From an uncultured Clostridia bacterium (GTDB lineage: Bacteria > Bacillota > Clostridia > TANB77 > CAG-508), in NCBI GenBank assembly GCA_947628775.1, contig CANRBI010000001.1, forward strand, positions 4,730 through 68,729: a DNA stretch of 64,000 nucleotides. The letters are read 5' to 3'. This document shows, one piece after another, positions 4,770 through 47,500 of this stretch. A model generated the notes under the pieces. That model was not told the origin of the DNA, searched no databases, and saw only the letters and a program-made list of their open reading frames with translations. A program made the position numbers and the translations under genes. Numbering within the stretch: position 1 is the stretch's first letter; the number at the start of each line of letters is the position of its first letter.

Positions 4770-7700
4770 ATGAACAAAAAGAAGGACAAAGTAATAGCGG
4801 TATTTATACTTATAATTATGCTAATGAATATGTTATCAGGTATAATAAGTGCAGATTTTGAAACACAAGTAGAAGATACAAATGTATTTTTTGATGTATA
4901 TTTTGATAATGAAAGTCATAATACTGAAGCTAATATAAATGAACAAACAATGCTTACAGCTAACATCAAAATTGAAAATGCGGGAGTTATTGATAATGCT
5001 AAAATAAAATTTGATAATCCAAATTTTAAAATAAATGCTGATGATATTGACCAAAAATACATTAAAGAAGTGAACAAAGAAACAGACGAAATAACACTTA
5101 GTCAAATAACAACAGGAGAAATAAGTATCAAAATACCAATAATATTTGAAAAATACGGAAAAATAGATATATCAGAATTATCAAAAGCAACACCAATAAA
5201 ATTCACTGGAGACTATAAATGTCACTCAGAAGAAATAAGACAAATAGAAAAGAACATGGAAATTGTAGTAAATTGGGTATCATCACCAACAATAGAACTA
5301 CAAAGTGAATACACAAGTTATTTTTCAGACAATTCTCAAGTAATATTAGAACAAACAATAACTTCTACTGATAATGACAAAATGCCAAAACAAGCAGAAA
5401 GAATAGAAGTACAAATTCCAATATTAGATGAACAAAAACCACTACAAACAAAAGTATTAATAGATGATATGATAGCAAATGAAGAATACAAAATAGAAGA
5501 AAATAGCTTAATAATAGAAAACACAAACGACTTATGGGAGAAAAATCAAGACAAATATACCATAATATATACATATCCTGAAACAGTAGAACTAAAAGAA
5601 AGAGAAATACCACAAAACATACAATGTAAAACAAGATTTTATGGAAAATCAGAAATAGCAGAAACACAAAAAAATGAAACAGAAATAGTACAAGAAAAAG
5701 GACAAGCAATACAGACACAATATACATCTACAGAAAGTGTATATAAAGGATACATACAAAATGCTGCAGAAAGAAATACAACAATAGATGAAGTAACACA
5801 AATAAAATTTTTAAAAACTGAAAAAACAATAAAAGAAATAGAAATGGGAACAACAAGCCTTGTTGATGAAAATGAAAATCAGTATCCTATAGAAAATGTC
5901 CAATACGAAAAAACACTACTTAATAAAAAACAATTAAAATCAGTTTTAGGTGAAAATTTTGTACTAACATTCATAAATCAAGAAACAAATGAATTAATAG
6001 CAACAATTGATAGTAATACAAAAGAAGATGAACAAGGAAATATTACTATAGAATATGAAGACAATATTCATAAAATAAAAATACAAACAGAAAATGAAGT
6101 AAAAAATGAAGGTAAAATAACAATTGCAAATGTCAAAAATATAATAGGAAATACAGGATATACAAAAGAACAAATAAAACAATTCAAACAAATAAATAAT
6201 GAAGAAAAAATTAAAGAAATAGATGATACACAAACAGAAATAGCAGTACAAACAGAATTAAAAGATACTGAAACAAAAGCAGAATTAAAAATAAGTACAG
6301 AACAATTAATATCATCACAAACAAATGAAAATGTAGAAATAGAAGTAAATCTATTATCATATAACATAATGCATGAACTATATAAAAATCCTTTAATAGA
6401 AGTAAACTTACCAAAAGAAATACAAGATATAAATGTAAAATCAATAAAAAAGGTATATTCAGACGAATTATCAGTTCAAGATGCAGCATTAATAACAAAT
6501 GACCAAGGACAAAAAGTAATACAAATTCAAATGGCAGGAGAAGAAACACAATATAATAATTCAACATTTAAAGGAGCAACAATAAAAATATTATGTGATA
6601 TAGACTTGAAAAATAAAGAACAACTAGAAGAAGAATATAAACAAGAACAACAAAATCAATCATTAGAAGAAAATCAATTACAAGAACAAATTGAAAATGC
6701 AACTCAAGAAGAACAACCAGAAACACAAATATATACATCACAAATACAAGTAAAATGCACAAATGAAAATTCAAATCAACAATATGAAGAACAAAAAGAA
6801 GTAAAAATTTTAGCATTGGAAGAGCCAAAACAAGAAGTACAACAGCCAGTAGAAGAAAATATGACAGAAATTCAACAAACATCAACAACAGAAGAACAAG
6901 AAGTAGAAGAACATACAAATGAAAAAATAACAATGGAAGTACTACCAAAAACTAATGGTGAACAACTAAAAGATGGAGAAGATGTATATGAAGGGCAAAA
7001 TATATTCTATCAATTAAAAATAAAAAATGTATCAGAAAATGATATACAAAATGCAAAAATAGCAGTAACACATGAAAATGCAATATTCTATCATAATGTA
7101 AGAACAGAAGTTGAAGTAACAGATGAAGATACGGAATCTAATTATGAAGATATATATGAAGAAGATCCAGAACTAAAACAACTAGATATAGATATAGGAA
7201 CAATAAAAGCAGGAGAAACAATAGAAAAACAATATGAAATTTCTGTAGCAGAAGTAGAAGAAGAAGGACAACTTTCAGGAAATATAGTAGTTACAGCTAC
7301 TGATATGGAAAATTTAGAAGTAGAAACAAATAAAAATCCTATAAAACAAGCTGATCTAAAATTAGTAATGTCAATTAATAATTTTTCAAATAAAAGAGAA
7401 TATTATTCAGATCAATCATTAGAAATCCGACTTTCACTTACAAACTTTACAGATGAGCAAAAAGATGCAGATATATATATTCCATTACCAGAAGGAATAA
7501 GTTCTCAAGAAAGACAAGGAGAAGAAGATGAAAACTTTGAATATTTGGGCGTAGAAAATGGAATGTTACATGTAAAAATAAATAATATACGAGCAAAACA
7601 GGTAAGGAACACATCTGTAAAATTATGGATAGATGAATTTGAAGATGAATCAGATAAAAAACAATTTGAATTTTATGCAATTTTAAAACTAAATGAAGAA

Positions 7701-9206
7701 GTTAATTTAAGAACAAATTTTGAAATAATTGAAGTTGCTAGACTAAGAGAACAAGATGTACCTTTACAAGTTAACTTAATTTCGACACCAGATAATAATA
7801 CAGAAGTTTCAACAGGACAACAAATTACTTATACAGGTATAGTACGAAATTATGGATTACAAGATATTGAAAATATTGAAATAGCAATCCAAAAAACAGA
7901 AAACATTATAATAGATAGCATAACAATAGAAGGGGCTGTGGATCAAGAAACACAAGATTATGGAGAAAATTTCATAATATCAAAAATAGCAAAAAATTCA
8001 ACAGCAACAATTACAATACAAGCACATATAACAGAGGATGAACAAGCAGTAACGACACAAGAATTATATGATACATCACTTTATTTTAATGTAAAAACGG
8101 AAGAATATGAATTAATGTCTCCAGAAATAAATCATGAAATAGTTATAGATAATCAAGGGACACAAGATAATCCTTGGTATGGATATCCAGTAAGTAATGG
8201 TAAAATAAGTGGAACTGCATGGATAGATAGTAATAAAGACGGAATAAAAGATGAAGGAGAAGAACGAATACCAAACTTAGAAATTGTACTAATAAATGCA
8301 TTTGAAGATGAACAAGAAGTAATGTATAGTACAATAACAGATGAACAAGGAAATTATGAATTCTCAGATTTAATAGAAGGAAACTACATTATAGGATTTA
8401 ATTATGATAATGTTAATTACCAAATGACAGAATATCAAAAACAAGGAGTATCAGAAAGACAAAACTCAGATGTAATCACAGAATATTCAAGTGATGGTAA
8501 ATTATATGCAATTACAGATATAATAAATGTATCAGAAAAATATGTAACAAATATAGATGCAGGATTTATACAAAAAGATTTATTTGACTTAAGTATGAAA
8601 AAATATATATCAAGAGTAACAATAAGAGATAATAAAAATAATGTTACAACAACAAATTATCAAAATACACAATTTACAAAACAAGAAATACCATCAAAAA
8701 CACTAGAAGGTGCAGTTGTTTTAATAGATTATGACATAGTAATAACAAATGAAGGAGAACTTCCAGGATTTATTGATGATATAACTGATTATATCCCAGC
8801 AGATTTACAATTCCAATCATCAGTAAATAAAGATTGGTATCTTGGAACAGATGGAAATTTACATACTAATAGTTTATCACAAGAAATAATACAACCAGGA
8901 GAAACAAAAACAATAACATTAGTATTAACAAAACAAATGACAAAAACAAATGTAGGAATGATTTCAAATACTGCAGAAATTAGTGCAGCACACAATGAAA
9001 GAAATTCTCAAGACAAAGATTCTATACTAGGAAATAGACAAGATGGAGAAGATGATATAAGTAATGCACAACTATTAGTTTCTGTAAAAACAGGATTAGT
9101 ACAAAGTGTAAATATAACAGTTATTATAACAGTATTACTTGCTATAGCAATGATAATATATATAATTAGAGGAAAGGAGGATGATGAAAGTGAAGATAAG
9201 ACATAA
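4770..9206 (+). CDS. Giant cell-surface protein A1 (~1478 aa). Signal peptide, acidic low-complexity linkers, DUF11/Cna-B (SdrD-B-like) repeat domains, and a C-terminal sorting signal LVSVKTG + TM + RGKEDDESEDKT.
   Basis: Probable start ATG 4770, 11 nt after RBS aggagg. The track ORF begins at GTG 4758, which lies inside the RBS. The protein starts with the signal peptide MNKKKDKVIAVFILIIMLMNMLSG. A Cna-B/SdrD-B-like block reads GTAWIDSNKDGIKDEGEE...TDEQGNYEFSDLIEGNYIIGF. A DUF11-like C-terminal module ends ...NTAEISAAHNERNSQDKDS...LLVSVKTG, followed by a hydrophobic stretch and a basic/acidic tail. It is paralogous to the 44505..49445 product. Confidence 0.8.
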   Translation: MNKKKDKVIAVFILIIMLMNMLSGIISADFETQVEDTNVFFDVYFDNESHNTEANINEQTMLTANIKIENAGVIDNAKIKFDNPNFKINADDIDQKYIKEVNKETDEITLSQITTGEISIKIPIIFEKYGKIDISELSKATPIKFTGDYKCHSEEIRQIEKNMEIVVNWVSSPTIELQSEYTSYFSDNSQVILEQTITSTDNDKMPKQAERIEVQIPILDEQKPLQTKVLIDDMIANEEYKIEENSLIIENTNDLWEKNQDKYTIIYTYPETVELKEREIPQNIQCKTRFYGKSEIAETQKNETEIVQEKGQAIQTQYTSTESVYKGYIQNAAERNTTIDEVTQIKFLKTEKTIKEIEMGTTSLVDENENQYPIENVQYEKTLLNKKQLKSVLGENFVLTFINQETNELIATIDSNTKEDEQGNITIEYEDNIHKIKIQTENEVKNEGKITIANVKNIIGNTGYTKEQIKQFKQINNEEKIKEIDDTQTEIAVQTELKDTETKAELKISTEQLISSQTNENVEIEVNLLSYNIMHELYKNPLIEVNLPKEIQDINVKSIKKVYSDELSVQDAALITNDQGQKVIQIQMAGEETQYNNSTFKGATIKILCDIDLKNKEQLEEEYKQEQQNQSLEENQLQEQIENATQEEQPETQIYTSQIQVKCTNENSNQQYEEQKEVKILALEEPKQEVQQPVEENMTEIQQTSTTEEQEVEEHTNEKITMEVLPKTNGEQLKDGEDVYEGQNIFYQLKIKNVSENDIQNAKIAVTHENAIFYHNVRTEVEVTDEDTESNYEDIYEEDPELKQLDIDIGTIKAGETIEKQYEISVAEVEEEGQLSGNIVVTATDMENLEVETNKNPIKQADLKLVMSINNFSNKREYYSDQSLEIRLSLTNFTDEQKDADIYIPLPEGISSQERQGEEDENFEYLGVENGMLHVKINNIRAKQVRNTSVKLWIDEFEDESDKKQFEFYAILKLNEEVNLRTNFEIIEVARLREQDVPLQVNLISTPDNNTEVSTGQQITYTGIVRNYGLQDIENIEIAIQKTENIIIDSITIEGAVDQETQDYGENFIISKIAKNSTATITIQAHITEDEQAVTTQELYDTSLYFNVKTEEYELMSPEINHEIVIDNQGTQDNPWYGYPVSNGKISGTAWIDSNKDGIKDEGEERIPNLEIVLINAFEDEQEVMYSTITDEQGNYEFSDLIEGNYIIGFNYDNVNYQMTEYQKQGVSERQNSDVITEYSSDGKLYAITDIINVSEKYVTNIDAGFIQKDLFDLSMKKYISRVTIRDNKNNVTTTNYQNTQFTKQEIPSKTLEGAVVLIDYDIVITNEGELPGFIDDITDYIPADLQFQSSVNKDWYLGTDGNLHTNSLSQEIIQPGETKTITLVLTKQMTKTNVGMISNTAEISAAHNERNSQDKDSILGNRQDGEDDISNAQLLVSVKTGLVQSVNITVIITVLLAIAMIIYIIRGKEDDESEDKT

Positions 9207-12200
9207 TAAAATAATAAAATTGCTATTTATAACAATCTTCATAATCCTTCTTATAAATAAACCATCAACAGCTTTAACTAGTAAATCTACTAATTTTGAC
9301 GAAATGAGACAAGAATTACTAAGTTCTGATGGATTTGATATAGATCCAAAAAGCTTTTTTAAAGATATGGAATATTCTATAGATACTCATGTTAAAAAAG
9401 GAGCAGCTTGTATACATGACCATCAAAATACACCTTTGACTAAAGATAGAAAAACCAGCATTTATTCAATTTATGCTGTTGTAGATTTGAATTTTAAACA
9501 GAGCACTTACTCAAAACCAGGAACATTTGTCAGGTATACAAAGAGTTCTCAAAAAACATATACTATGCAAGAAGCGAAAAAAGGAAAAAAAATAACCCCA
9601 ATAGATAAAGCACCATATAAAGATGTTTATCCACAAATTTCGGGTGAAGGACAGGCAAAGACAGCTATATCAGCTTTAGGTTATGCTGCTTATTATGCTA
9701 GAAATGAAAATGAAAATACTGATGATGCTAATAAGTCAAGATTTAGAATGATGTATTTCTTATCAATTAATGCACTATCCAGAAATTCAGACATATTACC
9801 AGTTAAGTTAAATACAGGTAATGGAGGAAGTTATTCTAGAGAAGCGGCAGCACATGGAGATGCAATTGTAGAGATACTTAATTATGCTAATTCTGCTGTA
9901 ACATATAAATTTGATATAAATAAATCAAATAGAAATTACAAAGCTACAAACACACGTCCTGCAGATGAAACAAAAGCATATGTTACATATAATGAAGAAA
10001 ATGATGTTACATATGTTGGACCATACTTTTTCAATTATACATATGAATGGAAACAAAATAAATTAAAAATTGTAGATGTAAAAGCTTCATTAGATAGTTA
10101 TCAAGGAAAGATATTTTATACCCTAAAAAGAGATGGAAATAATTTAAAAAGTTTTGAAGATAAAGATAGTTTCCCTACAGGTTCAGATAATCCGTTTTAT
10201 ATTGCAATTAAAGGCAAACTAAAAGAAAAATTAGATGTGACATTTGTTAATGAATATGATGTTTGTAAGGCAAGAATCATATTTGGTGCAAGTAAAACCG
10301 ATGAAACTGTTTCTCAAGAACGATGTATATTTAAGACTAAAATGACTACTTTAAATGATGCAGTAACAGTTTCTATGGAAGGTGGAACAGATACTAAACT
10401 ACATAAAATAGGATATGATCCTAAGACTGGAGAACAAACAAATCTTGAAGGAGTATTGTTTATATTCCAAAACATGGACACACGTAAGTATATAGCAAAA
10501 GATGGTGGAGAGACTTCTAGAAAAAGTGAAGCATATAAAATACCAACAGATCCTGAAGGTATGATTACATTACCAGATTTAGAAGGAAATTATTGTGCAT
10601 ATGAAGTAGATAACCCAGATAAAAAATATGACGGAGCTTGGAGTGAAACAGAAGGAATAAAATTAGAAATTGGAACAACAACTACAATTGTAAACACACC
10701 AGGTGCGATAGAATTACAATTGCAAAAAGTAGATGGTGACACAGGTGATCCTATAGAAGGAGTAGTATTTAAAATAAAGGAAAATACAAAAGGCTGGTAT
10801 ACAGGAAATATAGATGAACCATTTTCAAATAATGAAGATGATGCAAGTACATATATAACAGATATTAATGGTATAACAAAAGTGCCAAATCTACCATCAG
10901 GAGATTATAGCGCAGTTGAAATAAGTACAAAAGAACCATATGAAATAATAAAAGGTTCAATACCTTTAGATATAGCAAAAAAACCAAATGTAATTCAAAA
11001 CTTTAAAAACGACGAACCACAACCACCACCAGAAGAAGTACCAGATAGAGGAGAAGGACTTGTAAAAGTATTTTCTAATACAAATAACATGGCCCCAATG
11101 GGAGGAATTCAATTTGGAATAAAAAATTGGGAACCAGATAATCCAGAATACAAAATAGAACCACGAGAACCATTAAGAAGTGATAGCAAATATTGGAGTA
11201 ATGTACCTCATACAGGACGAAGACCTACAGAAAAAAAAGACGAAAATGGAAATACAATCTATGAATCATATACATATTATGAATGGGAATTTACAGAAGA
11301 ATTATTATATCAATCAGATCATAAAGAATATGAAATTAAACTAGACAACTACAAATATTATATGAAATCGAAAGAAACATATGTTGCAACAGGTACATCT
11401 CAAACAAATGGAACTGTGCAACTATCTGGAGACATAAGACCAGGTACATATGACTTATATGAATATGGATCATTAAATTCATATGTTATTGTACAACAGA
11501 AATGTGTACAATCAGGATATCGAGTAGGTGATTCATTAGATGTAGAAAATCCTAGAACATATGTAGATATAGAAGGAAATGTATGGGTAGATTATCAAGA
11601 AGGAAAATCATCTACAAGAGATAATAAATTTGCATCAAATGAAGGATTAAATGGAGTAAAAGTAACATTAAAACGAGGAAATAGCGAAATATGCAGTGTA
11701 GCATCAGGATTTGATAGTAATGGAGCATCTCAATCTAGAGGACACTATAAATTCTGGGGAGATATAAATAACTTAAGAATAGAAGTAGATCATTTGGATG
11801 AATATTCAATAGAATTCTCATATAATGGTATTGTATATCAAAGTATAAGTGCTACATCAATAGAACCAGGAGGAACAGCAAAAGCCAAAGAAAACGATAG
11901 TGAAAGAACACAGTTTAATGCTGACTTTTCAACAGTAACAGCAGGAACACAAACAAGTAATGGACAATCAACAAACTTATCAAGAAATAATGGAAAAACT
12001 ATTTTATATAATTCAACAGGTCATAGTAGTAGAGTAGTATACAAAGCTACACAAGATGCAATAGGAACCTTATCAGATGAAGCCTATGCAGATGATCAAT
12101 ATCATATGAAAGCATATACAACAGAAGCTGGACTAAACTTAGGATCACCTAATCAATATGGAGGATATCCATATGACCCAGCTAAAAATTCAATAACAGA

Positions 12201-14796
12201 TATCAACTGTGGATTATTTAGAAGAGATAGTTTAGATTTAGCGATAGCAAGTGACTTATTAGCAGTGGAGACATCAATAAATGGATATTCTAATATTTAT
12301 GAATATAATAAACGTTATGCAAAAATAGCAAATCAAGATGCATTTGAAATAAATATAAAAGAATCAGATATAGGCTATAATGAAACATTATTAAGAGAGT
12401 TATATCCAGAAGATATAGATTATACTAGCAAAAATCATGATGCAGCATATGGAAATATGGAAGAAAACGGATTAAATGTATTCTTAACATATAAAGTTGT
12501 AGTTAGAAATCAATCATCTACACTATCAGCAAAAGTCAATGAACTTGTAGAATATTTTTCTTCAGATATAAAAGAAGTAGTTGCTGTAGGAGGATATATT
12601 GATGAAAATATGACAAATGAAGATTTGCAGAAAATGCCAATAGGTTCAAATGGAAGAAGATACCAAGTAAAAAACACAAGCGGATTTTCAGTTGAAAATA
12701 CTACACAAGTAAGTGGAATTGATTATAAAAAATCTGTAATTAACACAGAAGGATTAGGAACGATACAAGTAGGAGATGCAGTAGAATTTTATATACAAGT
12801 AAGAATGGATCAAGAATCATTTGGAACAAAATTAAATCAAGATTCTTCTGGTAATACACAATTGAGAAATGTAGTAGAATTATATACATGTACAGCTTAT
12901 GATAAAAATGGAAATCTTTGCCCAGCAATTGATTCTGATTCAGCAGTAGGAAACTGTATACCAAATAATATAGATACAATGGAAGATGATACAGATTTTG
13001 CACCTACAGTAGTAATACAACGTTCAGGATCAATAAGGAAAATAAGTGGAACTGTATTTGAAGATCAAACTTCAGAAGCATTAAAAGCAGGAGAAGAAAG
13101 ATTAGGCGATGGAGTTTATGGTTCTGGTGATACACCTATTGATGGTATACGAGTAGATTTAATCGATATAGATAGAGGCATTATAGCACATGTATATGAA
13201 GGCGGAGAAGTAAAGGATGCAACTAAAATAACAGCAGATGGAGGAAAATATGAAATACAAGGATTTATACCAGGAAATTATGTAATAAGATATACTTATG
13301 GTAATGGAACAGGAAAATATACAGCTCAACAATATAAATCAACAGTATTTTTACCAGATTATTCAGGAGTTTCAACAGAAGGTACTATTGTAGCATCAAA
13401 CGAAAGAAAAGACTATTATGAAGCACAAAATGAGGCTAAAACACCAAGTGGAACTGCAACATATTGGGGCTCACCTGAATGGTATAAAGATAATGTTTCT
13501 ACACAATGCTCAGATGCTGTAGATAATTATAGTGGAGAAATGGAAGCAATAGATTCAACAGGTGGACATGAAAAATATTATCGTACACCACGAACAGATG
13601 GAAGTATGAGCAGAACTGAAATAGAAGAACTATGGTCAAATGGTTATGCTGACGGATATCAACATATATTAGCTAATACAGAGATAGATAAGACAATTAA
13701 TATTAATGCATATACACCATGGATGGGATTTAGTGTACAATATGACTATGATTGGATTAAAAGTGGAGATGGAAATTTGGAAAACTTCACAGTTGAAAAT
13801 GTAGATTTTGGTATTTCAGAAAGACCAAGATGTTTAGTGCAAATAGATAAAGAAATAAAACGTATTCAAATATTGAATTCAGATGGAAGTATACTAAGAG
13901 ATTTAACATCACTTGAAAAAGACACGCTTCCACAATATACAAAAACTGAGCCAAAAGAACCAATACAACAATTAAAAGAAACAGGTTCAGATGCAACACC
14001 AAATAGAGGATTTGTAGAATTTGAAATTGACAGAGAATTACTACAAAACCCAACAATTCTTGTAGAATATGAATTCACTGCAACAAATAAAAGTGAAGTT
14101 GATTATAAAGATGAAGAATACTATAAATATGGCGTTTCTTCAAATGCTGATGATAGTACTATCATGAATTTATCAGTAGTAGGAGTTATAGACTATGTAG
14201 ACAATCAAGTATTATATAATAAAGATAGTAATATGATTTCAGAAGGAAATGATACAAAAACAAATGAAGAAAATGGATGGTCTGTAATAGATTTATCAAA
14301 AGCTGAAAACAAAAAATACTTGCAACAAAATGTTCTTGACAACTTATATGATAGTACAGGGTGTAAATTTAATACAGTATTAATAGGAAAAGGATTAGAT
14401 AAACTAATAAAACCAGCTGTAAAAACGGAATCAATAGGATTAGTATTAAATAAAGATTTGCAACAAAATGATATATGGTCATATGAAAATATAGCAGAAA
14501 TAGTAGAAGTTAAGAAAACATGGGGAAGGGAATTACATGCAGAAGATACATCAACATCATATGGAGAAAAATTAGGAAATCTAGACCCAACAGAAGACAT
14601 GGACGATATTGTAAATCCTAAAAATAATCCAGGCACACCAGGTAAAGAACCAGACACAAGTTATACTGAAAGAATAATTATAAACCCACCAACAGGACAA
14701 GACAGAAATTACACATATATTGCAATAATAATCATAACATTACTTGGACTATTAGCAACAGGAATAATAATCATAAAGAAAAAAGTACTAAAATAA
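9181..14796 (+). CDS. Giant cell-surface adhesin B1 (~1870 aa). Signal peptide, an N-terminal putative internal-thioester (TED-like) domain, Cna-B-type stalk domains, and a C-terminal sorting signal NPPTG + TM + KKKVLK.
   Basis: Start is ambiguous among ATG 9181, ATG 9184 and GTG 9190; the RBS ggaaaggagg ends at 9180. The start overlaps the last 26 nt of the upstream gene. An N-terminal conserved Cys sits in GAACIHDHQ (Cys codon 9409-9411). Cna-B-like segments: GDPIEGVVFKIKENTKGWYTGN...PNLPSGDYSAVEIS and GGKYEIQGFIPGNYVIRYTYGNG. The C-terminus reads ...IIINPPTGQDRNYTYIAIIIITLLGLLATGIIIIKKKVLK. It is paralogous to 49468..53769. Confidence 0.8.
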   Translation: MMKVKIRHNKIIKLLFITIFIILLINKPSTALTSKSTNFDEMRQELLSSDGFDIDPKSFFKDMEYSIDTHVKKGAACIHDHQNTPLTKDRKTSIYSIYAVVDLNFKQSTYSKPGTFVRYTKSSQKTYTMQEAKKGKKITPIDKAPYKDVYPQISGEGQAKTAISALGYAAYYARNENENTDDANKSRFRMMYFLSINALSRNSDILPVKLNTGNGGSYSREAAAHGDAIVEILNYANSAVTYKFDINKSNRNYKATNTRPADETKAYVTYNEENDVTYVGPYFFNYTYEWKQNKLKIVDVKASLDSYQGKIFYTLKRDGNNLKSFEDKDSFPTGSDNPFYIAIKGKLKEKLDVTFVNEYDVCKARIIFGASKTDETVSQERCIFKTKMTTLNDAVTVSMEGGTDTKLHKIGYDPKTGEQTNLEGVLFIFQNMDTRKYIAKDGGETSRKSEAYKIPTDPEGMITLPDLEGNYCAYEVDNPDKKYDGAWSETEGIKLEIGTTTTIVNTPGAIELQLQKVDGDTGDPIEGVVFKIKENTKGWYTGNIDEPFSNNEDDASTYITDINGITKVPNLPSGDYSAVEISTKEPYEIIKGSIPLDIAKKPNVIQNFKNDEPQPPPEEVPDRGEGLVKVFSNTNNMAPMGGIQFGIKNWEPDNPEYKIEPREPLRSDSKYWSNVPHTGRRPTEKKDENGNTIYESYTYYEWEFTEELLYQSDHKEYEIKLDNYKYYMKSKETYVATGTSQTNGTVQLSGDIRPGTYDLYEYGSLNSYVIVQQKCVQSGYRVGDSLDVENPRTYVDIEGNVWVDYQEGKSSTRDNKFASNEGLNGVKVTLKRGNSEICSVASGFDSNGASQSRGHYKFWGDINNLRIEVDHLDEYSIEFSYNGIVYQSISATSIEPGGTAKAKENDSERTQFNADFSTVTAGTQTSNGQSTNLSRNNGKTILYNSTGHSSRVVYKATQDAIGTLSDEAYADDQYHMKAYTTEAGLNLGSPNQYGGYPYDPAKNSITDINCGLFRRDSLDLAIASDLLAVETSINGYSNIYEYNKRYAKIANQDAFEINIKESDIGYNETLLRELYPEDIDYTSKNHDAAYGNMEENGLNVFLTYKVVVRNQSSTLSAKVNELVEYFSSDIKEVVAVGGYIDENMTNEDLQKMPIGSNGRRYQVKNTSGFSVENTTQVSGIDYKKSVINTEGLGTIQVGDAVEFYIQVRMDQESFGTKLNQDSSGNTQLRNVVELYTCTAYDKNGNLCPAIDSDSAVGNCIPNNIDTMEDDTDFAPTVVIQRSGSIRKISGTVFEDQTSEALKAGEERLGDGVYGSGDTPIDGIRVDLIDIDRGIIAHVYEGGEVKDATKITADGGKYEIQGFIPGNYVIRYTYGNGTGKYTAQQYKSTVFLPDYSGVSTEGTIVASNERKDYYEAQNEAKTPSGTATYWGSPEWYKDNVSTQCSDAVDNYSGEMEAIDSTGGHEKYYRTPRTDGSMSRTEIEELWSNGYADGYQHILANTEIDKTININAYTPWMGFSVQYDYDWIKSGDGNLENFTVENVDFGISERPRCLVQIDKEIKRIQILNSDGSILRDLTSLEKDTLPQYTKTEPKEPIQQLKETGSDATPNRGFVEFEIDRELLQNPTILVEYEFTATNKSEVDYKDEEYYKYGVSSNADDSTIMNLSVVGVIDYVDNQVLYNKDSNMISEGNDTKTNEENGWSVIDLSKAENKKYLQQNVLDNLYDSTGCKFNTVLIGKGLDKLIKPAVKTESIGLVLNKDLQQNDIWSYENIAEIVEVKKTWGRELHAEDTSTSYGEKLGNLDPTEDMDDIVNPKNNPGTPGKEPDTSYTERIIINPPTGQDRNYTYIAIIIITLLGLLATGIIIIKKKVLK

Positions 14797-25135: not shown

Positions 25136-28100
25136 ATGAAGACAAAAACAATTAAAATAATATCATTAATTTTAATTATTTTAATGGTCATATCTATGGC
25201 TTTTTATGTAGTTGACGCAGAAGATCAAAATGTTACTCTTAGTCTCACACCAAAGCCTAAAATAGATATAGTATTAGCTAAAGCAAAAACATCACTTGAT
25301 TTAGGAAATTTTGAAAAAGATATAAAATCAAAACTTTCTAATGAAGGTATAGACACAGATGATGTTAAAGTAAGTGCGATAGAAGCTAATCAAGAAGTTT
25401 TAACAACATCTTTTGATTGGGATCAAGATTTATCAAAAGATATAGGAGATATTAAAATTACTAATGGTGGACGAGATGTTGAGATGATAGGCAATTATTC
25501 AGAAGAAGGAAAAAATGCAATGTGGATAATTCCGGACAAGCAAAACCAAGATCAAAAATTCACTTTTGATTATAATATTGACTTTGGAGATAGTTTCAAT
25601 GCAGCTGGAATGTTATTAAAAGTAAAAGACAATGGAAATACATTGACAGGATATATGTTAAGTTTTAATAAATCATCAAAAAGTTGGTATTCAGGTAGTG
25701 GTAATTATAATGGAGCAATTTGGGAATTTTCATATACCAAAAAAGCAAATACATATAATGTAGAAACAAAAATACTAAAAAAAGGATTGGATATTTTAAC
25801 AGAAGGTACACTTACAGTTGAAACTACTGATACACAAATTAAGGTTTCTGGGGGAGGATTAAGTGAAACAGCAATATATGATATAGAAAAAGAATTTGGA
25901 AATGGATATGGATTTTTCTCAGACCATTATAGTCATGGTTGTGATCAATATGGTAGTTTCAAATTAACTAATATTAATTTACAAACAGAATCAGTAAAAA
26001 CATTTAATGAAGTACTAAGAAGTGCAGACTGGAGAGATGGAGCTTATAAATTCTTGGTAAATGTTGATGAAAAAGAAAATGAAGAATTAGCAAATGCATC
26101 TACATATGGAGAGTTAGCAACAAGATTAATGAATGAAGGTATATATTTTGTAGCATGGGGAAATTCTAAAAACGAAACTCAATTTGAAAACTTAATAAAG
26201 ACAAATGATGATAAGGGTAAGTTTATAACAAATGCAGGATATACATCTAATATTGAACAAACTGCAAAATATATAAAAAGTGTATTAGGAACTTTACAGT
26301 CATCAAATTATTTAATTGTAAATGAACCGATAAAAATAGGAGTAGAACCACCAGGAATATTAACAGGTACTATAGATGAACAATGGACAACTGGTAAATG
26401 GATGGTAAAGCATGATTATGAATATTATGAAAATAATATGGGACAATTTGCGCAATCAAATATGTATACAGATGATTTTACGACAACATTTAATAAAGTA
26501 GGAAAATATGAAATAACATATAAAAATGTTCCAATAAATCCAACTGAAATATATGTACATAGAAGACCTATAGCATTATTTGATATGGCTATAAATGAAA
26601 CCAATGTAACACTAACAGACAAATCATATGATTTGGATAAAGAATCACAAGATAATGGAATAAAAGAAAAACAATGGAAATGGAAAGAACCTTCAGAAAC
26701 AAGTTGGCATGAAGGACAATTAACTACAATAGATAAAACAAAGGAATATATAGTACAATTAAGAGTAAAAGATTTTCAAGAAACATGGAGCACACCATGT
26801 AATAAATATATTAATTTAAAATTAGATAATATAAAACCAATAGCAACATTTGATTTTAAAAACAGTGAAATTACACCATATGACAAATTAGAAATAACAG
26901 ATAATTCATATGATCCAGCAGGCAAGACGATTACAAATAGAAAATGGGAAGTATTTGATAAAGATAATGTATCAAAATATAATAGTACAACACAAAAGGA
27001 AACTTATACAGATTTAACACCAGGACAATATAAAATGAGTTTAACAGTAACAAATGAATCTGGTACACAATCAGAAACATTTTCAAGATATTTTACAATT
27101 GTAGCAGATTCAATTGCACCAGAATTTGTAGCCACTCCAATAGAATCAGATTGGACAAAAGAAGTAACAGTAAATTTAGAGTTTAATGACCCAGGACTAA
27201 GTGGTTTTAAAAACTATAAATATGAAATAACAACATCACAAGATAAACCATCACAATATTCTAATCAAAGTACAAATGCAAATGATCAAATAACTTTAGA
27301 TGGAACGGGAATAAAGTATATACATATCATAACTGAAGATATAGCAGGAAATATAAGTGCAAACAGAATTATAGGATCATATAAATTGGATAATCAACCG
27401 CCAGAAATAACAGTTACAGCAGATTTCCAAAATGCAGTAGTAGATAAATTACAAGTTAATATAAAGACAGATGATCCGCATTCAGGAATGAAAAGTCTTA
27501 AATTAGATGGAAATGATTTAAAAAGTATTAATGATGATACAGTAGAGATACTAAAAAATGGAACATATACAATTACAGCAGAAGACCAACTAGGTAATAC
27601 AAGTACAAAACAAATTCAAGTAAACAATATAAATTATGAATGTAATGCAGGATTAGGACATCCAAACTACAGTTCAAGTCTTGATAAATGTCCTATATGC
27701 AAACTTTTAGAAGGAGTTACAGTAACAAATCATGAAGCTGTATATGATAAAACTGAAAAATCTCTAACATATGATAATCCAAATGAAGCTGAAATAGTAG
27801 AATATTATAATGGTTCAACACAAAAACCAATAGAAGAAGGTTCATATACATATGTACTAAAAATAAAATATAATGGAACTGAATATAACACAGGAATATC
27901 AGGAACTTATACAATACATCCAAAACCAATAACAATTACATCAATAACTGCAGAAGATAGACAATATAATAAAACAGATGTAGTTAATATTTCAGGAGGA
28001 CAACTAGTAGGAGTAGAACAAGGAGATGAAGTAGGATTTGAATTACCACAAACAGGACAATCAGTAGATGTAGAAGGTGAACAAATCATACCAGTGGTAG

Positions 28101-30457
28101 AAGTAGGAACACATAATGTGCGAATAGATGAAATAACATTAAATGGAGCCCAAAGTCACAACTATAAACTAATACAACCAAATATAACAGATGTATCTGT
28201 AACTATTACAAATAAAGAACTAACAATTGTTGATATAATAGCTGAAAACAGACAATATAACAAAACAGATATAATAAATTTATCAGGAGGACAATTAGTA
28301 GGAATTGAAGAAGGAGATAATGTAGGATTTGTATTACCACAAACAGGACAATCAGTAGATATTATTGAAAATCAACCAGTATCAGCACCAAATGTAGGTG
28401 AACACTACGTAAAGATAGGTGAAATTAAGCTAATAGGAGAAAATGCATCTGAATACATATTAATAGCTCCTAAAACAACAGAAGTAAAAGTAACAATTAC
28501 ACCAAAAGATATAAATATTACTGAAATAAAAGCGGAAGACAGAGAATATGATAAAACAAATATAGTACAATTAAAAGGAGGACAACTAATAGGACTAGAA
28601 GAAGGAGATACAGTAAATTTTGTACTACCAGAAACAGGAACAATAGATGATGTAATAATAGGAAAATATAATGTACACATTCCAGAAATAAAATTAACAG
28701 AGGAACAGGCATACAATTATAACCTAATAGCACCACTATTTGAAGATGTATCAGTAACTATTACACAAAGAAAAATTAAACTAACAGATTTACAAGCAAT
28801 AGACAAAAAATATGATAAAAATGCAATAGTTAAATTAAAAGGAGAAACATTTGATAGAGCAATAGAAGGCGATGATGTAAAAGCAATAATTCCAGAAACA
28901 GGTATAGCAGAAAGCCCAGATGTAGGACAATGGAAAGTAGGAATGCAAAAAATAACACTAGAAGGAGCAGATAGTGACAATTATCAAATAATTCAACCAG
29001 AATATGGAGAAGTACTAGTAAATATATTTGATCCAGAAAAACCATTTATACATATGGAATCTGATGTAGTGGCAGTAAATGAAGACAAAATAGAAATTTC
29101 AGAACCTCAAGTAGATGAAGAAGGAAATGTTATATATGAAACTGATAAAAAAGCCATAGATGTAAGATATGGAGACGAAATAGCATTACAAATATCTGCA
29201 TATAATCAAGGGATTGGAGCTGGATATGTAAATGAAATACAAGTAGAACTTCCAGAAGGTTTAGAAATGCTAGATTCAGAAACAAATAAAGTAAACAAAT
29301 GGAAATCAACAAAAGACAATACATATACAACAACTAAACTTTCTTTTGAAGGAGGAGTAAAAAACGAAATTCCAGGAATGGAAGACAACATTTTAAGCGA
29401 AAAATCTCTAATACTTGAATGTAAAGTAACAGCAAAAGATATAAACACCAAAGAACTAATAATAAAAACAAAAGCAAACCAAGCAGATACTATAAATCAA
29501 ACAATAGAATATAATGAACAAAAAGAAGAACAAAACACAGTACAAGATGAAAACACAGTACAAGATGAAAACACAATACAAGATGAAAATACAGTTCAAG
29601 ATGAAAATATAATAGAACAAAAAGAAGATGAAGAAGACGAAGTTCAAGAAGTATCTAGAATATCACAACAATTAGAGGAGACTGAAATAAAAGCAGAAGA
29701 TGAAATACAAGAAAGAGAGCAAACAGAAGACACAGAAAATACAGAAGACCCAAATGATATCGAAGATACAGAAACAGAAGAAAAAGAAACAACAGAAATA
29801 TATAGCACATCAGAAACAAAATTAAATGTAAAATATACAGATTTTAGTATAAGTGCAAAAATAAAACATATATATAACATAACAGTAGGACAAGAAATAC
29901 CATCAAACCCAGAGCCAAACACAATAACGAAATTTGAAATACACAGAAAACAGATAGCTCAAACAAAAATACAAGTTATATATGAAGTAGCAGTTGAAAA
30001 TAAAGGAAACAGTGAAGGAGAAGTAGACAAGGTAATTGATTACTTGCCACAAGGTCTACAATTCCAACAATCTCAAAATCCTGATTGGACTTTATCAGAG
30101 CAAAACACAATAGAAACAACAGAATTTGGAACAATTAAACCAGGAGAAACAAAAACAAAAGAAATTATACTAAACTGGGACATGTCACAAACAGCAGGAA
30201 CAAAAGAAAATAAAGTAGTATTAACATCTATACATGATATAGACCAAAGAACAATATATGCTGATCCAAATAAAACATTAGAAAAAGAACAAATAAAGGG
30301 AAAAATTTTAGAAACAAACAATACTTCACAAACAACAGTAATAGGATCAGTAAAAACAGGTATACAAGTTTATATTACAATAATAGCATCATTATTATTA
30401 CTAATATTATTGCCAATAGTATTTTTAATAAAAAGAAAAAGAAATAATCTTTCTTAA
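25136..30457 (+). CDS. Giant cell-surface protein C (~1774 aa). Signal peptide, N-terminal β-sandwich-like region, four tandem MBG (YGX-type) domains, an acidic ENTVQD-repeat linker, a DUF11-like C-terminal module and the sorting signal IGSVKTG + TM + KRKRNNLS.
   Basis: ATG 25136 encodes MKTKTIKIISLILIILMVISMAFYVVDA. The track ORF begins at GTG 25127. There are four ~95-aa repeats of the form ITAEDRQYNKTD..NISGGQLVG.EEGD.VGF.LPQTGQ...NVGEH.V.I.EI.L.G..A..Y.L..P, which fit the MBG domain. The C-terminus DWTLSEQN...PGETKTKEIILNW...SVKTGIQVYITIIASLLLLILLPIVFLIKRKR is homologous to the family A C-termini. Confidence 0.8.
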   Translation: MKTKTIKIISLILIILMVISMAFYVVDAEDQNVTLSLTPKPKIDIVLAKAKTSLDLGNFEKDIKSKLSNEGIDTDDVKVSAIEANQEVLTTSFDWDQDLSKDIGDIKITNGGRDVEMIGNYSEEGKNAMWIIPDKQNQDQKFTFDYNIDFGDSFNAAGMLLKVKDNGNTLTGYMLSFNKSSKSWYSGSGNYNGAIWEFSYTKKANTYNVETKILKKGLDILTEGTLTVETTDTQIKVSGGGLSETAIYDIEKEFGNGYGFFSDHYSHGCDQYGSFKLTNINLQTESVKTFNEVLRSADWRDGAYKFLVNVDEKENEELANASTYGELATRLMNEGIYFVAWGNSKNETQFENLIKTNDDKGKFITNAGYTSNIEQTAKYIKSVLGTLQSSNYLIVNEPIKIGVEPPGILTGTIDEQWTTGKWMVKHDYEYYENNMGQFAQSNMYTDDFTTTFNKVGKYEITYKNVPINPTEIYVHRRPIALFDMAINETNVTLTDKSYDLDKESQDNGIKEKQWKWKEPSETSWHEGQLTTIDKTKEYIVQLRVKDFQETWSTPCNKYINLKLDNIKPIATFDFKNSEITPYDKLEITDNSYDPAGKTITNRKWEVFDKDNVSKYNSTTQKETYTDLTPGQYKMSLTVTNESGTQSETFSRYFTIVADSIAPEFVATPIESDWTKEVTVNLEFNDPGLSGFKNYKYEITTSQDKPSQYSNQSTNANDQITLDGTGIKYIHIITEDIAGNISANRIIGSYKLDNQPPEITVTADFQNAVVDKLQVNIKTDDPHSGMKSLKLDGNDLKSINDDTVEILKNGTYTITAEDQLGNTSTKQIQVNNINYECNAGLGHPNYSSSLDKCPICKLLEGVTVTNHEAVYDKTEKSLTYDNPNEAEIVEYYNGSTQKPIEEGSYTYVLKIKYNGTEYNTGISGTYTIHPKPITITSITAEDRQYNKTDVVNISGGQLVGVEQGDEVGFELPQTGQSVDVEGEQIIPVVEVGTHNVRIDEITLNGAQSHNYKLIQPNITDVSVTITNKELTIVDIIAENRQYNKTDIINLSGGQLVGIEEGDNVGFVLPQTGQSVDIIENQPVSAPNVGEHYVKIGEIKLIGENASEYILIAPKTTEVKVTITPKDINITEIKAEDREYDKTNIVQLKGGQLIGLEEGDTVNFVLPETGTIDDVIIGKYNVHIPEIKLTEEQAYNYNLIAPLFEDVSVTITQRKIKLTDLQAIDKKYDKNAIVKLKGETFDRAIEGDDVKAIIPETGIAESPDVGQWKVGMQKITLEGADSDNYQIIQPEYGEVLVNIFDPEKPFIHMESDVVAVNEDKIEISEPQVDEEGNVIYETDKKAIDVRYGDEIALQISAYNQGIGAGYVNEIQVELPEGLEMLDSETNKVNKWKSTKDNTYTTTKLSFEGGVKNEIPGMEDNILSEKSLILECKVTAKDINTKELIIKTKANQADTINQTIEYNEQKEEQNTVQDENTVQDENTIQDENTVQDENIIEQKEDEEDEVQEVSRISQQLEETEIKAEDEIQEREQTEDTENTEDPNDIEDTETEEKETTEIYSTSETKLNVKYTDFSISAKIKHIYNITVGQEIPSNPEPNTITKFEIHRKQIAQTKIQVIYEVAVENKGNSEGEVDKVIDYLPQGLQFQQSQNPDWTLSEQNTIETTEFGTIKPGETKTKEIILNWDMSQTAGTKENKVVLTSIHDIDQRTIYADPNKTLEKEQIKGKILETNNTSQTTVIGSVKTGIQVYITIIASLLLLILLPIVFLIKRKRNNLS
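27925..29035 (+). repeat. Four tandem ~285-nt coding repeats encoding MBG-type domains inside surface protein C.
   Basis: The repeated amino-acid blocks are (A/I)EDR(Q/E)Y(N/D)KT(D/N)...GGQL(V/I)G(V/I/L)E(Q/E)GD.V.F.LP(Q/E)TG; nucleotide identity between units is visible by eye. Confidence 0.7.
29533..29615 (+). repeat. Tandem 18-nt repeat (aacacagtacaagatgaa, about 4.5 units) encoding (ENTVQD)n.
   Basis: aacacagtacaagatgaaaacacagtacaagatgaaaacacaatacaagatgaaaatacagttcaagatgaaaat, in frame within the acidic linker of protein C. Confidence 0.8.
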
Positions 30458-43569: not shown

Positions 43570-44160
43570 TTAATCATTCTCCTGACTAGAATTAAAATTA
43601 TTTTTAAATAAATCAGCCATTTTAGCCATATTTAACATATTTATGTAATTATCCATTTTTCCTTTTTTGCTATCTCTTAAATAAGGTTTGAGAGCATTTA
43701 ATAGATTTTGGCGAGAATCATTTTGATTAGAATTATTTAGCTTTGATGCCATTTTCATAAGCATATTAATGTCAATATTGTTAAAATTAGTATTATTAGA
43801 ATTCATTTCATTAAATCTGTTACTCTGAGTGTTATTAACATTTGCTTCATTCAAACAATTAGTATTATCAGTAGTATTATTGCAATCATAATTAACACTA
43901 TTAATACTATTTTCTAAACATTTATTGATATTATTACTATCATTTACACTACTACAACTACTATTATTACTGTTACTATTTGCATTTATATTACTATTTT
44001 TAGTATTATCATTTTGGTTTTGACTTAACATTTTAGAAAAATTTTGTATCATATCAGGAGGAATTTGAGAAACAGCTTCATCAAATTTACCATTTTCAAT
44101 TAATTTCTTTATATTATTCATAGTATTTTGATTAAAATTATTTTCCAAATAAATCACCAC
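43570..44160 (-). CDS. Hypothetical Asn/Ser-rich protein (196 aa) with structured N- and C-terminal segments and a 4-Cys low-complexity core.
   Basis: Long minus-strand ORF in an otherwise + strand region. GTG start without a clear RBS. Ordered-looking termini: KLIENGKFDEAVSQIPPDMIQNF and NLLNALKPYLRDSKKGKMDNYINMLNMAKMADLF. Confidence 0.4.
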   Translation of the reverse strand: MVIYLENNFNQNTMNNIKKLIENGKFDEAVSQIPPDMIQNFSKMLSQNQNDNTKNSNINANSNSNNSSCSSVNDSNNINKCLENSINSVNYDCNNTTDNTNCLNEANVNNTQSNRFNEMNSNNTNFNNIDINMLMKMASKLNNSNQNDSRQNLLNALKPYLRDSKKGKMDNYINMLNMAKMADLFKNNFNSSQEND

Positions 44161-44504: not shown

Positions 44505-47500
44505 ATGAAAGAGAGAATTACAAGAGCAATAATAGCTAGCTTGTTAATTTTAGCAATGACAATGTCTAACTTTATATTGCTAGGAATCACTGCAGTAACA
44601 TATGCAGTTGATAGTATTACTCAAGATAAAACGACTAATAATAAAAATGTAGAATTCATGGCATATTTTAAAGATTCAAATCAAAACATAATATCTAGTC
44701 GAGAAATAAAAATGAATGAAACTGATTTAAAACTTTATTTTAAAATAGCTGTAAAACGTGAAGGTTATTTCAATGGACAAGTAGAACTTTCTAACAGTAA
44801 TTTTAAAATAAATGAAACAAACTTGGAAGAAAAAGGTATTTCAAAAATAGAAGGGAATACAATATACTTAAATCAAATTAATGCAGGAGAAGAAAAAGAA
44901 TATGAAATAGGAATAGAACTATTTAAAGATGATATGTATGATTTAAGTATGTTACAAAAAGATTCACAAGTTTCTATTAGTGGTACCTATAAAGATAGCA
45001 CTGAAAAAGATATAAGCATAGAAGCATCTAGAACTGTAACTCTTAAATTAATGGAACCATATGCAGATAATGAACAATCACCAGTATCATTAGAACAAAA
45101 AGTAATAACAAATAAAGTATATGATTCAAATGGTAGAAAAGTTAGAGTTCTACAAGTGCAGATTGATGCAAAATTATTAGATAATAATTATCCTATAAAA
45201 AGTGCTAAACTAGAATTAACAGCACCAAAGGTAAATAATAAATATCCTGAAATAGTTGAACTTGTAACACCAGATGAATTAATGACAAATGGTAAAAAAC
45301 TAAGTGAAGACCAATATAAATATGATAAAGGAACAGGATTACTTACAGCCACAGTAGAAAATACTGAAACAGATGGAAAAGTAGTATGGACTAAATCAGG
45401 TACAGATACATATGTTGTTACATATATATTTAGTGAAGAAGAATCTATTCAAGATCAAAGATTAATAGCAAGTGTAAAATATGAATTATATAATGATAGT
45501 AAAACATCATATACAAAAAATATAGAAACACCTATGATGAGTGGTGAACTAGATTCTACAATAGAAGTAAAAACAGATAGTACTGATGAAATATATAAAG
45601 GAAAATTATATGCAGGACTTGAAAAAGAATATTCACAAAATATTCATATTCAAGTAAATACATATGGAATAGCAGAATCAATATATGTAGCAGAAGATAT
45701 TAGCCAAATGAGATTACAAACATATACAAAACAAATAAAATTAAATAAGGATAATATGATATCAATACTAGGAGATGATGGAAAAGTTACAATCTTAAAT
45801 AAAGCAACAAGTCAAGTGATATCAGAAATTACTAAAGATAGTCAAGCAAATGAACAAGGAAATATAACAATTGATATACCAGCAAATATACCAGAAATTG
45901 CTATTCAAACAACAAAACCAACAAGTGCTGGAGTATTAGATATAACATCAATCAGAGTTATAGCTGCAAATGCTATAAATACTGTAAAAAGCATAAATGA
46001 ATTACCATATGTAATTAAAGGAAATTATATGATTGGTAATATAGAAAATGCAATTAAAGAAGTATCATCAAATATAGAATTAAAAGAAACACAAACTTCA
46101 GCAAGACTAGAAGTTAATAAAGAAGAACTTTCAACAATGACAACAAATAAAAATGTAGAAATGAAAGTTATATTAGAAACAGCAAATGAAAGTCAAGAAT
46201 TATACAAAGCACCAACAATACGTGTTACACTACCAGATAAAATACAAGATATACAAATTAACGCCATTAATTTAATAAATGAAGATGAATTACAAATAGC
46301 ATCAAAACAATTAATTGGAAAAACAATAGAAATACAACTACAAAATGAACAAACAAAATACAAAGACATAGCAGTAGAAGGCGCAGAAATTCTTATATCA
46401 GCAGATTTAACACTTGACAAAAAAGAAACAAACTCAACAGAACAAATCACATTAACTTATACAAACCAAAAAGCAGTAAACTATAAAGAAGGAGCAGATA
46501 TAGGAACAGATTCTAAACCAATAAATATAGTTTCATATGCAGGAATTGTTACAGTAAATGAAATTTCAGATTATGGAATTCAAACAATAAACAATGACGG
46601 AACAAAACAAGGAAAACTAGAATTAGGAAAAGAAGCTAAAACTACAACTATAAAATCTGAAATATATAACAACCAAGATGCAAAAATAAATAATGTAAGA
46701 ATATTAGGAACATTCCCAACACAAGGAGCATCTGATGAAAATAATATTGAAACAAGTGTAAGTAAAATAACATTAGAAGGACCAGTAGTATCTCATGAAA
46801 ATGAAAATATAATTGCAGAAATTCTAGCAAATCAAAAAGCATATTATACAGAAAATGAAAATGCAGATACAGACCTAGAAAATCAAGCAAATCAATGGGA
46901 AGAAACAATAAAAGATCCATCAAAAGTAAAAAAATACATGATAGTGATAGATAGTTTAGATATAAAAGATGAAATATCTTTTGAATATAATTTAACAGTA
47001 CCTGCAAATTTGGAATATAACCAAACTGCAAAAACAGGATATGACATATACTACACTATAGACACAGCAAATGTAGAACAAGTTGTAAATACAGATAAAT
47101 TAACTTTAGAAACAGGTGTAGGACCAATAGTAAATGCAGAATTACAAGCGACAGTTGGAGGACAAGAAATAACAGAAGTTAAAAAGGGAGAATTTATACA
47201 TTATACAATAACTGCAAGAAATACAGGTTCAGAACCAGTAGAAAATGTAAAACTTATAGGAGAAGTACCAGAGGGTACAGTATATATTGAAGAAGTTATA
47301 TATTCAAATGATTCTGATACTGAAAGCGGAGGAACATTTGACCTAAATAATCGTTTTAGTGAAGACTTAAATAAAACTCAAGTAGAGTTTACAGTAGAAA
47401 AATTAGATGTAGGGGAGCAAGTAGTTAAAACATATGATGTAAAGGTAAAAGATGTAACATCTAAAACAGCAGAAGCAAAAGTGAATATACAGTATGGAGA

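Follow-up and report, generated by a model that had tools for sequence, protein, structure and literature searches.

Surface proteins of the window and their C-terminal tails

The window analysed here, a 64,000-nucleotide stretch of contig CANRBI010000001.1 (positions 4,730 to 68,729, forward strand) from an uncultured Clostridia bacterium (assembly GCA_947628775.1), encodes five large secreted proteins, A1, A2, B1, B2 and C, and the subject of this study is the C-terminal tail with which A1, A2 and C end. The window has a G+C content of 27.5% and is chromosomal DNA of a spore-forming Firmicute. Pfam search of its open reading frames (ORFs) identified genes for SleB/YpeB, SpoIIE, MreBCD, MinC, PBP2, PrfA, a MurE-like protein, DnaJ and PcrA. 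Identical genes were present on contigs of two gut-type metagenome assemblies in ENA, and the start of A1 was called identically in both.

The A1 gene (4770..9206, + strand) encodes a secreted, fibrillar-adhesin-like protein of 1478 amino acids (aa) with a signal peptide, an SdrD_B domain (E-value 1.3e-14) and a terminal CLIPPER/DUF11 domain (1.4e-8 for DUF11). Its sorting-type tail (9081..9203, + strand) consists of SVKTG (9081-9095), followed by LVQSVNITVIITVLLAIAMIIYII and then by RGKEDDESEDKT. The 5' end of B1 (9181..14796, + strand) overlaps the 3' end of A1; the B1 product, a secreted protein of 1871 aa, includes SpaA prealbumin-like and SdrD_B domains and ends with NPPTG (14683-14697), a transmembrane (TM) segment and KKKVLK. 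In the second A-B pair, A2 (44505..49445, + strand; secreted, 1646 aa) has three CLIPPER domains, CLIPPER_2/DUF7507 and SdrD_B before GIKTG (49329-49343), a TM segment and KKRVI, and B2 (49468..53769, + strand; secreted, 1433 aa) has SpaA and SdrD_B domains before MPSTG (53656-53670), a TM segment and KKRVNK. The fifth gene, C (25136..30457, + strand), encodes a secreted protein of ~1773 aa with PKD, four YDG and a terminal CLIPPER domain, ending with SVKTG (30347-30361), a TM segment and KRKRNNLS.

Signal-peptide-like sequences with a basic n-region and a hydrophobic core could be read from the translated N-termini of all five proteins. The CLIPPER family (DUF11, PF01345) scored above its gathering cutoff of 24.6 bits in A1 (35.5 bits), A2 (51.8 bits) and C (29.4 bits), each of which is thus a long secreted protein with PF01345, as expected of a CLIPPER isopeptide-domain adhesin. 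CLIPPER, SdrD_B and SpaA are among the isopeptide-bonded stalk domains of fibrillar adhesins in a recent survey (PMC12617251).

In a six-frame scan of the whole window for xxxTG with a run of 15 or more hydrophobic residues and a K/R tail behind it, exactly five ORFs fitted the pattern, and these were A1, A2, C, B1 and B2; the full three-part sorting signal together with a signal peptide was found on exactly the five large secreted proteins. The x(V/I)KTG motif, TM segment and charged tail that an earlier note on this DNA had described for A1, A2 and C were borne out by both the translations and the scan, and the coordinates agreed to within one or two codons. The three tails are proline-less and tripartite, with the anatomy of sortase signals: the T-G dipeptide, 30-40 residues from the C-terminus, precedes a hydrophobic segment and a K/R-rich end. 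Proline at position 2 of the pentapeptide was absent from A1, A2 and C and present in B1 and B2, and the A and B proteins therefore do differ in pentapeptide class, SVKTG (A1) and GIKTG (A2) versus NPPTG (B1) and MPSTG (B2). A canonical signal in a mis-called frame was also looked for. Neither LPxTG, LAxTG, NPxTG, IPxTG nor LPxAG was present near the C-termini of A1, A2 and C in any frame, and so the observation stands.

The start signals of B1 lie inside the codons of the charged A1 tail (window 9170-9206): AGGAGG at 9175-9180, ATG at 9181 and 9184, and GTG at 9190. By spacing, GTG 9190 or ATG 9184 is favoured as the real start of B1. The unusual acidic end of A1 (RGKEDDESEDKT) is encoded by the ribosome-binding and start region of B1, which suggests translational coupling.

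Protein C includes LPQTG (twice), LPETG and IPETG inside its four YDG repeats (28043, 28334, 28625 and 28889, + strand). As these lie 517-799 residues from the C-terminus with no TM segment after them, they are not sorting signals, yet they would fool simple LPXTG regex screens.

Conservation of the tail among relatives

The C-terminal 340 aa of A1 had 17 metagenomic relatives, all of which (17/17) ended with xTG, a TM segment and a basic tail. Their pentapeptides included TVKTG, SVKTG, LIKTG, GIKTG, SIVTG, SLVTG, AMGTG and TLGTG, and a single GPKTG. A profile of the terminal domain, truncated so as to exclude the last strand, motif and TM segment, was searched against 1.84 billion cluster representatives and detected 6427 relatives, 1665 of them at E<1e-30. 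The domain was followed by a tail in 101 of the best 150 relatives. In these 101 tails G was invariant (101/101) and T was present in ~94; position 2 was I in 60, V in 27, L in seven and P in two, and position 1 was S in 53, T in 25 and A in nine. Position 3 was free: K stood there in 35, S in 24 and V in 13, and R, T, A, E and further residues in the rest. In a second, independent set of 120 tails G was present in 120/120, T in 109/120 and P at position 2 in 1/120. Across the family, besides K also S, V, Q, E, R, T and A were common at position 3. Where T had been lost in these two A-type sets, its place was taken by A, S, P, L or V and in no case by D or N. T and G were invariant where A1, A2 and C were aligned among 25 diverse members, and all three window proteins had the succession of terminal-domain strand, x-T-G, TM segment and basic end that defines the tail class.

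Judged from these alignments, the conserved element is [S/T/A][I/V/L]-x-T-G, with the lack of proline as a family rule. This changes how three remarks of the earlier note are to be read. The motif had been called unusual, whereas a pentapeptide without proline at position 2 is the norm of the family. It had been described as a KTG core; K occupies position 3 in only ~25-35% of the family and only TG is conserved, and since position 3 is free the K is incidental. It had also been likened to NPKTG, the class B sortase signal carried by Bacillus anthracis IsdC. The K-T-G of that signal does coincide with A1, A2 and C, but these three lack its N and P, K varies across the family, and position 1 of the family is S, T or A rather than N, so that the likeness is superficial.

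The part of the tail after G had a median length of 28 residues (interquartile range 28-29) in the 101 tails and ended with a K/R-rich stretch of five residues, KK[YF]V[LI], in 71 of them. The mainstream tail is also conserved in sequence, as TGxxxxY...GG..LIKK[YF]V[LI]. When one genome per GTDB species was scanned with an alignment of eight sequences, at least 563 relatives were detected, and the best 79 loci all came from metagenome-assembled genomes (MAGs) of uncultured gut Clostridia, with human, mouse, chicken and rabbit as hosts. The sole source name found for members of the family was 'uncharacterized repeat protein (TIGR01451 family)'. By sequence, the tails of A1, A2 and C are local representatives of a very large class of C-terminal signals on isopeptide-domain fibrillar adhesins in uncultured gut Clostridia.

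Terminal and internal domain copies and the predicted structure

At the aligned position, TG was present in 94 of the 102 terminal copies of the domain and in 8 of the 346 internal copies, with a background TG frequency of 0.0068 per position. The internal copies keep the DS.P.N...EDD loop before the last strand, and this strand leads directly into the next domain (..x[VI]x[VL]xYFDLSL..). As TG occurs in the terminal and rarely in the internal copies, it belongs to the tail and not to the fold.

One related locus (L088, 6054-13237) encodes two tandem adhesins with thioester (TED) and CLIPPER domains, with the tails APKTG and SVKTG and without the EDD loop before the tail. The tail class is therefore not bound to a single subtype of terminal domain.

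An AlphaFold2 model of the last 215 aa of A1 (predicted local distance difference test score, pLDDT, 90) placed an immunoglobulin-like (Ig-like) fold in the terminal domain. In the model S-V-K is within the final beta strand (residues 167-177), T178-G179 are the sole non-regular residues, and the TM helix begins from residue 180. The fold search against PDB yielded no more than generic Ig-like folds (CARDB and the calf and thigh domains of integrin), which were uninformative on anchoring.

Proline-containing tails and the relation between the A and B proteins

Tails with and without proline were found in both protein families. In a collinear, syntenic orthologue of A2 (L003), which is located in the same context as A2 (MreC-MreD-penicillin-binding protein...A-B), IIGPKTG is aligned to the ILGIKTG of A2, and elsewhere A-type relatives with MPKTG, APKTG, QPATG and TPATG were present. 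The homologues of the B proteins had mostly xPxTG (TPATG, TPNTG, TPSTG, TPPTG) and also the proline-less VQSTG. Three members of the B family (P0180, P0182 and P0187) had Tyr or Phe at the position of Thr (IPPYG, LPPFG) with G and the tail retained; for every known sortase, an aromatic residue directly ahead of the scissile Gly would be out of the ordinary.

A hidden Markov model (HMM) was trained on the post-G tails only of 96 mainstream proline-less proteins. It gave 16.0 bits for B1, 20.2 bits for B2 and 15-31 bits for 8 of the 12 B homologues, while the canonical LPKAG, LPNTG and IPNTG tails encoded in related MAG loci scored at most 2.2 bits. The conserved post-G tail is thus combined with both pentapeptide classes, which points to a single recognition machinery that is lenient at position 2. 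The scores of A1 (-1.3 bits), A2 (-3.0 bits) and C (-2.6 bits) place these three outside the conserved post-G tail, of which they keep only the general character. A likeness between the window's own A and B tails was ruled out by the same model, only the mainstream A-type tails resembling those of the B proteins.

In related MAGs the A-like gene is often adjoined by a gene for a leucine-rich repeat (LRR) or Listeria-Bacteroides-repeat (Flg_new) protein ending with LPKAG, LPNTG or IPNTG. Such neighbours with canonical tails were located at L045 4018-6357, L058 8710-11094, L059 10946-13465, L053 13973-16393 and L084 11485-13824. They have a different conserved tail (..YFKLKKDMK or ..KDIK), so that two tail classes coexist in the clade, and the presence of LPNTG, IPNTG and LPKAG proteins beside A-like genes suggests that the clade has sortases.

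Curated models and known sorting signals

No curated NCBIfam sorting-domain model matched A1, A2 or the mainstream A-type tails at its cutoff. With TIGR01167 (cutoff 15.9 bits), the mainstream A-type tails reached 12.8-14.7 bits, A1 and A2 had no match even at E<=10, and C scored 17.5 bits as a tail alone and 13.6 bits at full length; of the B tails, B2 scored 18.6 and B1 15.8 bits. PF00746 (Gram_pos_anchor) did not match any of the five proteins at E<=0.01. The class B sortase-signal models TIGR03063, TIGR03065 and TIGR03068 matched none of the tails at cutoff, the best score with TIGR03063 (srtB_target) being 11.1 bits against a cutoff of 18.15. A class B signal has N at position 1 and P at position 2, where A1, A2 and C have S/G and V/I. 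A literature search on pentapeptides such as SVKTG and GIKTG as sorting motifs found nothing relevant. The tails are a hitherto uncurated form of a familiar type of signal, widespread beyond the window.

With the canonical LPXTG anchor (TIGR01167/Gram_pos_anchor) they share the tripartite layout, the scissile T-G dipeptide and the N-terminal signal peptide. Unlike it, they have no L-P, and the sequence after G is conserved in its own way and has a fixed length. Closer parallels were found in Clostridioides difficile and Streptococcus pyogenes. The C. difficile SrtB motif is (S/P)PxTG, and B1, B2 and the rare A-type APKTG, MPKTG and GPKTG fit xPxTG with K, S or P at position 3, although position 1 of B1 and B2 is neither S nor P; A1, A2 and C lack the proline that is found in all the (S/P)PxTG motifs cleaved in vitro by this enzyme. 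CbpA (CD3145) of the same species has NVQTG, which fits x-V-x-T-G, and AVQTG, SVQTG and TVQTG occur in the A-type family. CbpA is, however, a single C. difficile protein, while in the A-type family such a motif is the norm for thousands of proteins. SrtB, the single sortase of the organism, does not cleave the proline-less NVQTG in vitro (PMC4155245, PMC5569036, PMC5118464), and this made the authors doubt CbpA as a sortase substrate and suggest another mechanism of attachment (PMC4155245, PMC5569036).

Spy0129, the class B pilus sortase of S. pyogenes, accepts both EVPTG of the backbone pilin and VPPTG of the tip adhesin, with the consensus (E/Q/V)(V/P)PTG (PMC3019223). As would be the case for the A and B proteins, one enzyme accepts V or P two residues before Thr, and its substrates are co-encoded, isopeptide-bonded Ig-like surface proteins with the motif directly after the last strand. 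The differences are that the S. pyogenes motifs keep a proline at position 3 while those of A1, A2 and C have no proline at all, that the pilus locus encodes its sortase while none was found near the A-type genes, and that the S. pyogenes substrates are pilus subunits while for the window proteins, of 1400-1900 aa, a pilin lysine and polymerisation would be hypothetical. Spy0129 was inactive in vitro on its genuine substrate (PMC3019223), and negative peptide assays are therefore weak evidence.

Search for a possible sorting enzyme

No sortase was detected in the 64 kb window by Pfam search of its 29 ORFs of at least 150 aa and inspection of the three unannotated ones. In the neighbourhoods of the relatives, 1824 ORFs from 88 sources (87 related loci and the window; 1.43 Mb) were searched by phmmer (E<=1) with S. 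aureus SrtA and SrtB as approximate query sequences, together with a TLxTC-type regex, and no sortase was found within ~10 kb of the A-like genes. The Pfam-annotated neighbourhoods of A-like genes agreed in including no sortase, and neither did the 7 kb beyond the right end of the window, where one more large gene, cut off by the contig end, was found. The neighbours of the A-like genes were housekeeping genes, a GGDEF regulator, an amidase and unannotated proteins.

A conserved downstream neighbourhood was present in diverged genomes (L006 14423-17955; L029 10747-13557; L089 18791-21574). Its members are a protein of 315-350 aa with no Pfam family and a weak Cadherin-like match, a response regulator with GGDEF, and an Amidase_3 cell-wall hydrolase. 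The combination of GGDEF and Amidase_3 beside A-like genes recalls the control of sortase substrates by cyclic di-GMP in C. difficile.

Interpretation of the tails

The reading favoured here, with moderate confidence, is that the tails of A1, A2 and C are sortase-type sorting signals with little or no requirement for proline, and that the A and B proteins are probably served by the same enzyme. The sequences show the anatomy of the tails, the conservation of TG in the family and its restriction to the tail, the interchange of I/V and P at position 2 and the lack of any curated model for these tails; cleavage, the enzyme class and the attachment target are inferred. After Sec-dependent export the tail would keep the proteins in the membrane until a sortase-type transpeptidase cut the T-G bond and joined the carboxylate of Thr covalently to peptidoglycan or to a partner protein. 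An enzyme with little or no requirement for proline would probably also handle the xPxTG tails of B1 and B2. Isopeptide-locked stalks and TED adhesins, moreover, would seem to make mechanical sense only with a covalent anchor.

Several results weigh against this reading. The only proline-less x-V-x-T-G signal that has been examined experimentally, NVQTG of CbpA, was not cleaved in vitro. The curated sorting-domain models failed on A1, A2 and the mainstream A-type tails, no sortase was found in the window or within ~10 kb of the A-like genes in ~90 related loci, and in some members of the family P, L, V, Y or F stands where T is expected. In addition, the predicted placing of motif residues 1-3 within a strand, with no linker before the TM helix, would be an unusual presentation for a sortase substrate.

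Some of these points would also fit permanent, uncleaved TM anchors, where T-G would serve merely as a conserved hinge, or as a helix cap, at the junction of the TM helix with the last strand of the stalk. In the AlphaFold2 model the helix follows right after G and leaves no linker that could span the wall, no sortase was found near any of the ~90 loci, and the NVQTG of CbpA resisted SrtB; furthermore, a hydrophobic domain and a charged tail can hold proteins independently of sortase (Peltier et al.). A cap or hinge would, however, allow S, D or N in the place of T and small residues in the place of G, while G was present in 221/221 tails and T in ~92%, the substitutes of T (A, S, P, L and V) including neither D nor N. 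The fixed cytoplasmic end of five residues (71/101) and the 28-residue length after G are hallmarks of processed sorting domains, the proline-containing variants and the B family match known (S/P)PxTG-type sortase motifs, and a non-covalent anchor would be mechanically at odds with covalently locked stalks and thioester adhesins. Uncleaved anchors are the less likely reading, though a serious rival. At the other extreme, a chance resemblance or an annotation artefact, with a real LPxTG in another frame or a motif without meaning, is hardly credible: no canonical motif was present near the C-termini in any frame, the genes were called identically in two independent assemblies, and over 200 diverged relatives retain TG, specifically in the terminal copies.

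The earlier note had left open whether two sortases or one sortase of relaxed specificity act on the two pentapeptide classes. Separate enzymes, one for the proline-less x[V/I]xTG of A and C and the other for the xPxTG of B as in pilus systems, would agree with the pairing of a proline-less A gene with an adjacent proline-containing B gene at both window loci and of A-like genes with LPKAG-tailed LRR proteins in related MAGs, and with the negative scores of A1, A2 and C on the tail HMM that B1 and B2 match; the canonical LPx[TA]G tails are a clearly distinct class, which makes more than one sorting enzyme in the clade plausible. Against this, position 2 swaps between I/V/L/M and P both between orthologues and within both families, the mainstream tail is common to proline-less A-type and proline-containing B-type proteins, V and P at this position are both accepted by one known class B sortase, and no dedicated sortase gene accompanies any A-B pair (~90 loci). 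Two sortases are therefore considered unlikely, and the single sortase with relaxed specificity is the better supported option, given the swaps at position 2, VQSTG in the B family, the shared tail and the precedent of Spy0129. Still less probable is a dedicated non-sortase enzyme, an intramembrane or juxtamembrane protease or a transpeptidase, that would recognise G and the 28-residue tail in the manner of the exosortase, archaeosortase and rhombosortase 'CTERM' systems. A sequence-conserved tail of fixed length is typical of CTERM domains and atypical of LPXTG, G is the sole absolutely invariant residue while T sometimes gives way to Y, F, P, L or V, and no sortase was found nearby; yet the NCBIfam CTERM models match none of the tails, these genes have no conserved candidate enzyme gene as a neighbour, and the T-G dipeptide with its xPxTG variants is exactly the scissile site of sortases.

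Apart from the favoured reading of a sortase-type signal, it is conceivable, though the chances are low, that a dedicated sorting enzyme, either a proline-independent subclass of sortases or a non-sortase, recognises the [S/T][I/V]xTG tail with its fixed 28 residues in uncultured gut Clostridia and anchors thousands of giant adhesins with isopeptide and thioester domains, or joins them to each other. If so, it would also explain how C. difficile CbpA is bound to the surface despite the lack of cleavage of NVQTG by SrtB in vitro.

Consequences for the annotation of surface proteins

The motif list of the recent survey of isopeptide domains includes LP.T[GAND], NP.TG, LA.TG, IP.TG and others (PMC12617251). 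Regex and HMM screens for sortase substrates, including this list and the curated models of NCBI, miss the whole tail class, and many giant adhesins of abundant uncultured gut Clostridia, a large share of the total, consequently bear no annotation beyond that of repeat proteins. Should sortases act on the tails, the rule now accepted for position 2, namely Pro or, in class E, Ala, would be too narrow; otherwise another anchoring route for covalently locked adhesins awaits discovery. In either case the question raised by C. difficile CbpA becomes a general one, with a defined consensus of S-I/V-x-T-G and 28 further residues.

Other features of the window

A gene for a VirD4/TraG-type type IV coupling protein (18598-20617; 519 aa, E 2e-81) is located amid the housekeeping genes and is possibly a remnant of a conjugative element. 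The start of this gene is overlapped by an ORF for a membrane protein of 160 aa that resembles the N-terminal part, which suggests a split or frameshifted gene. Divergently upstream of A2, on the - strand, there is an Asn-rich ORF of 196 aa (43570-44160) with no Pfam family. Outside the window, ~4-7 kb past its right end, a large ORF of at least 1088 aa (L090 7950-11213) follows a P-type ATPase and is cut by the end of the contig; it may encode a sixth giant surface protein of the same genome.

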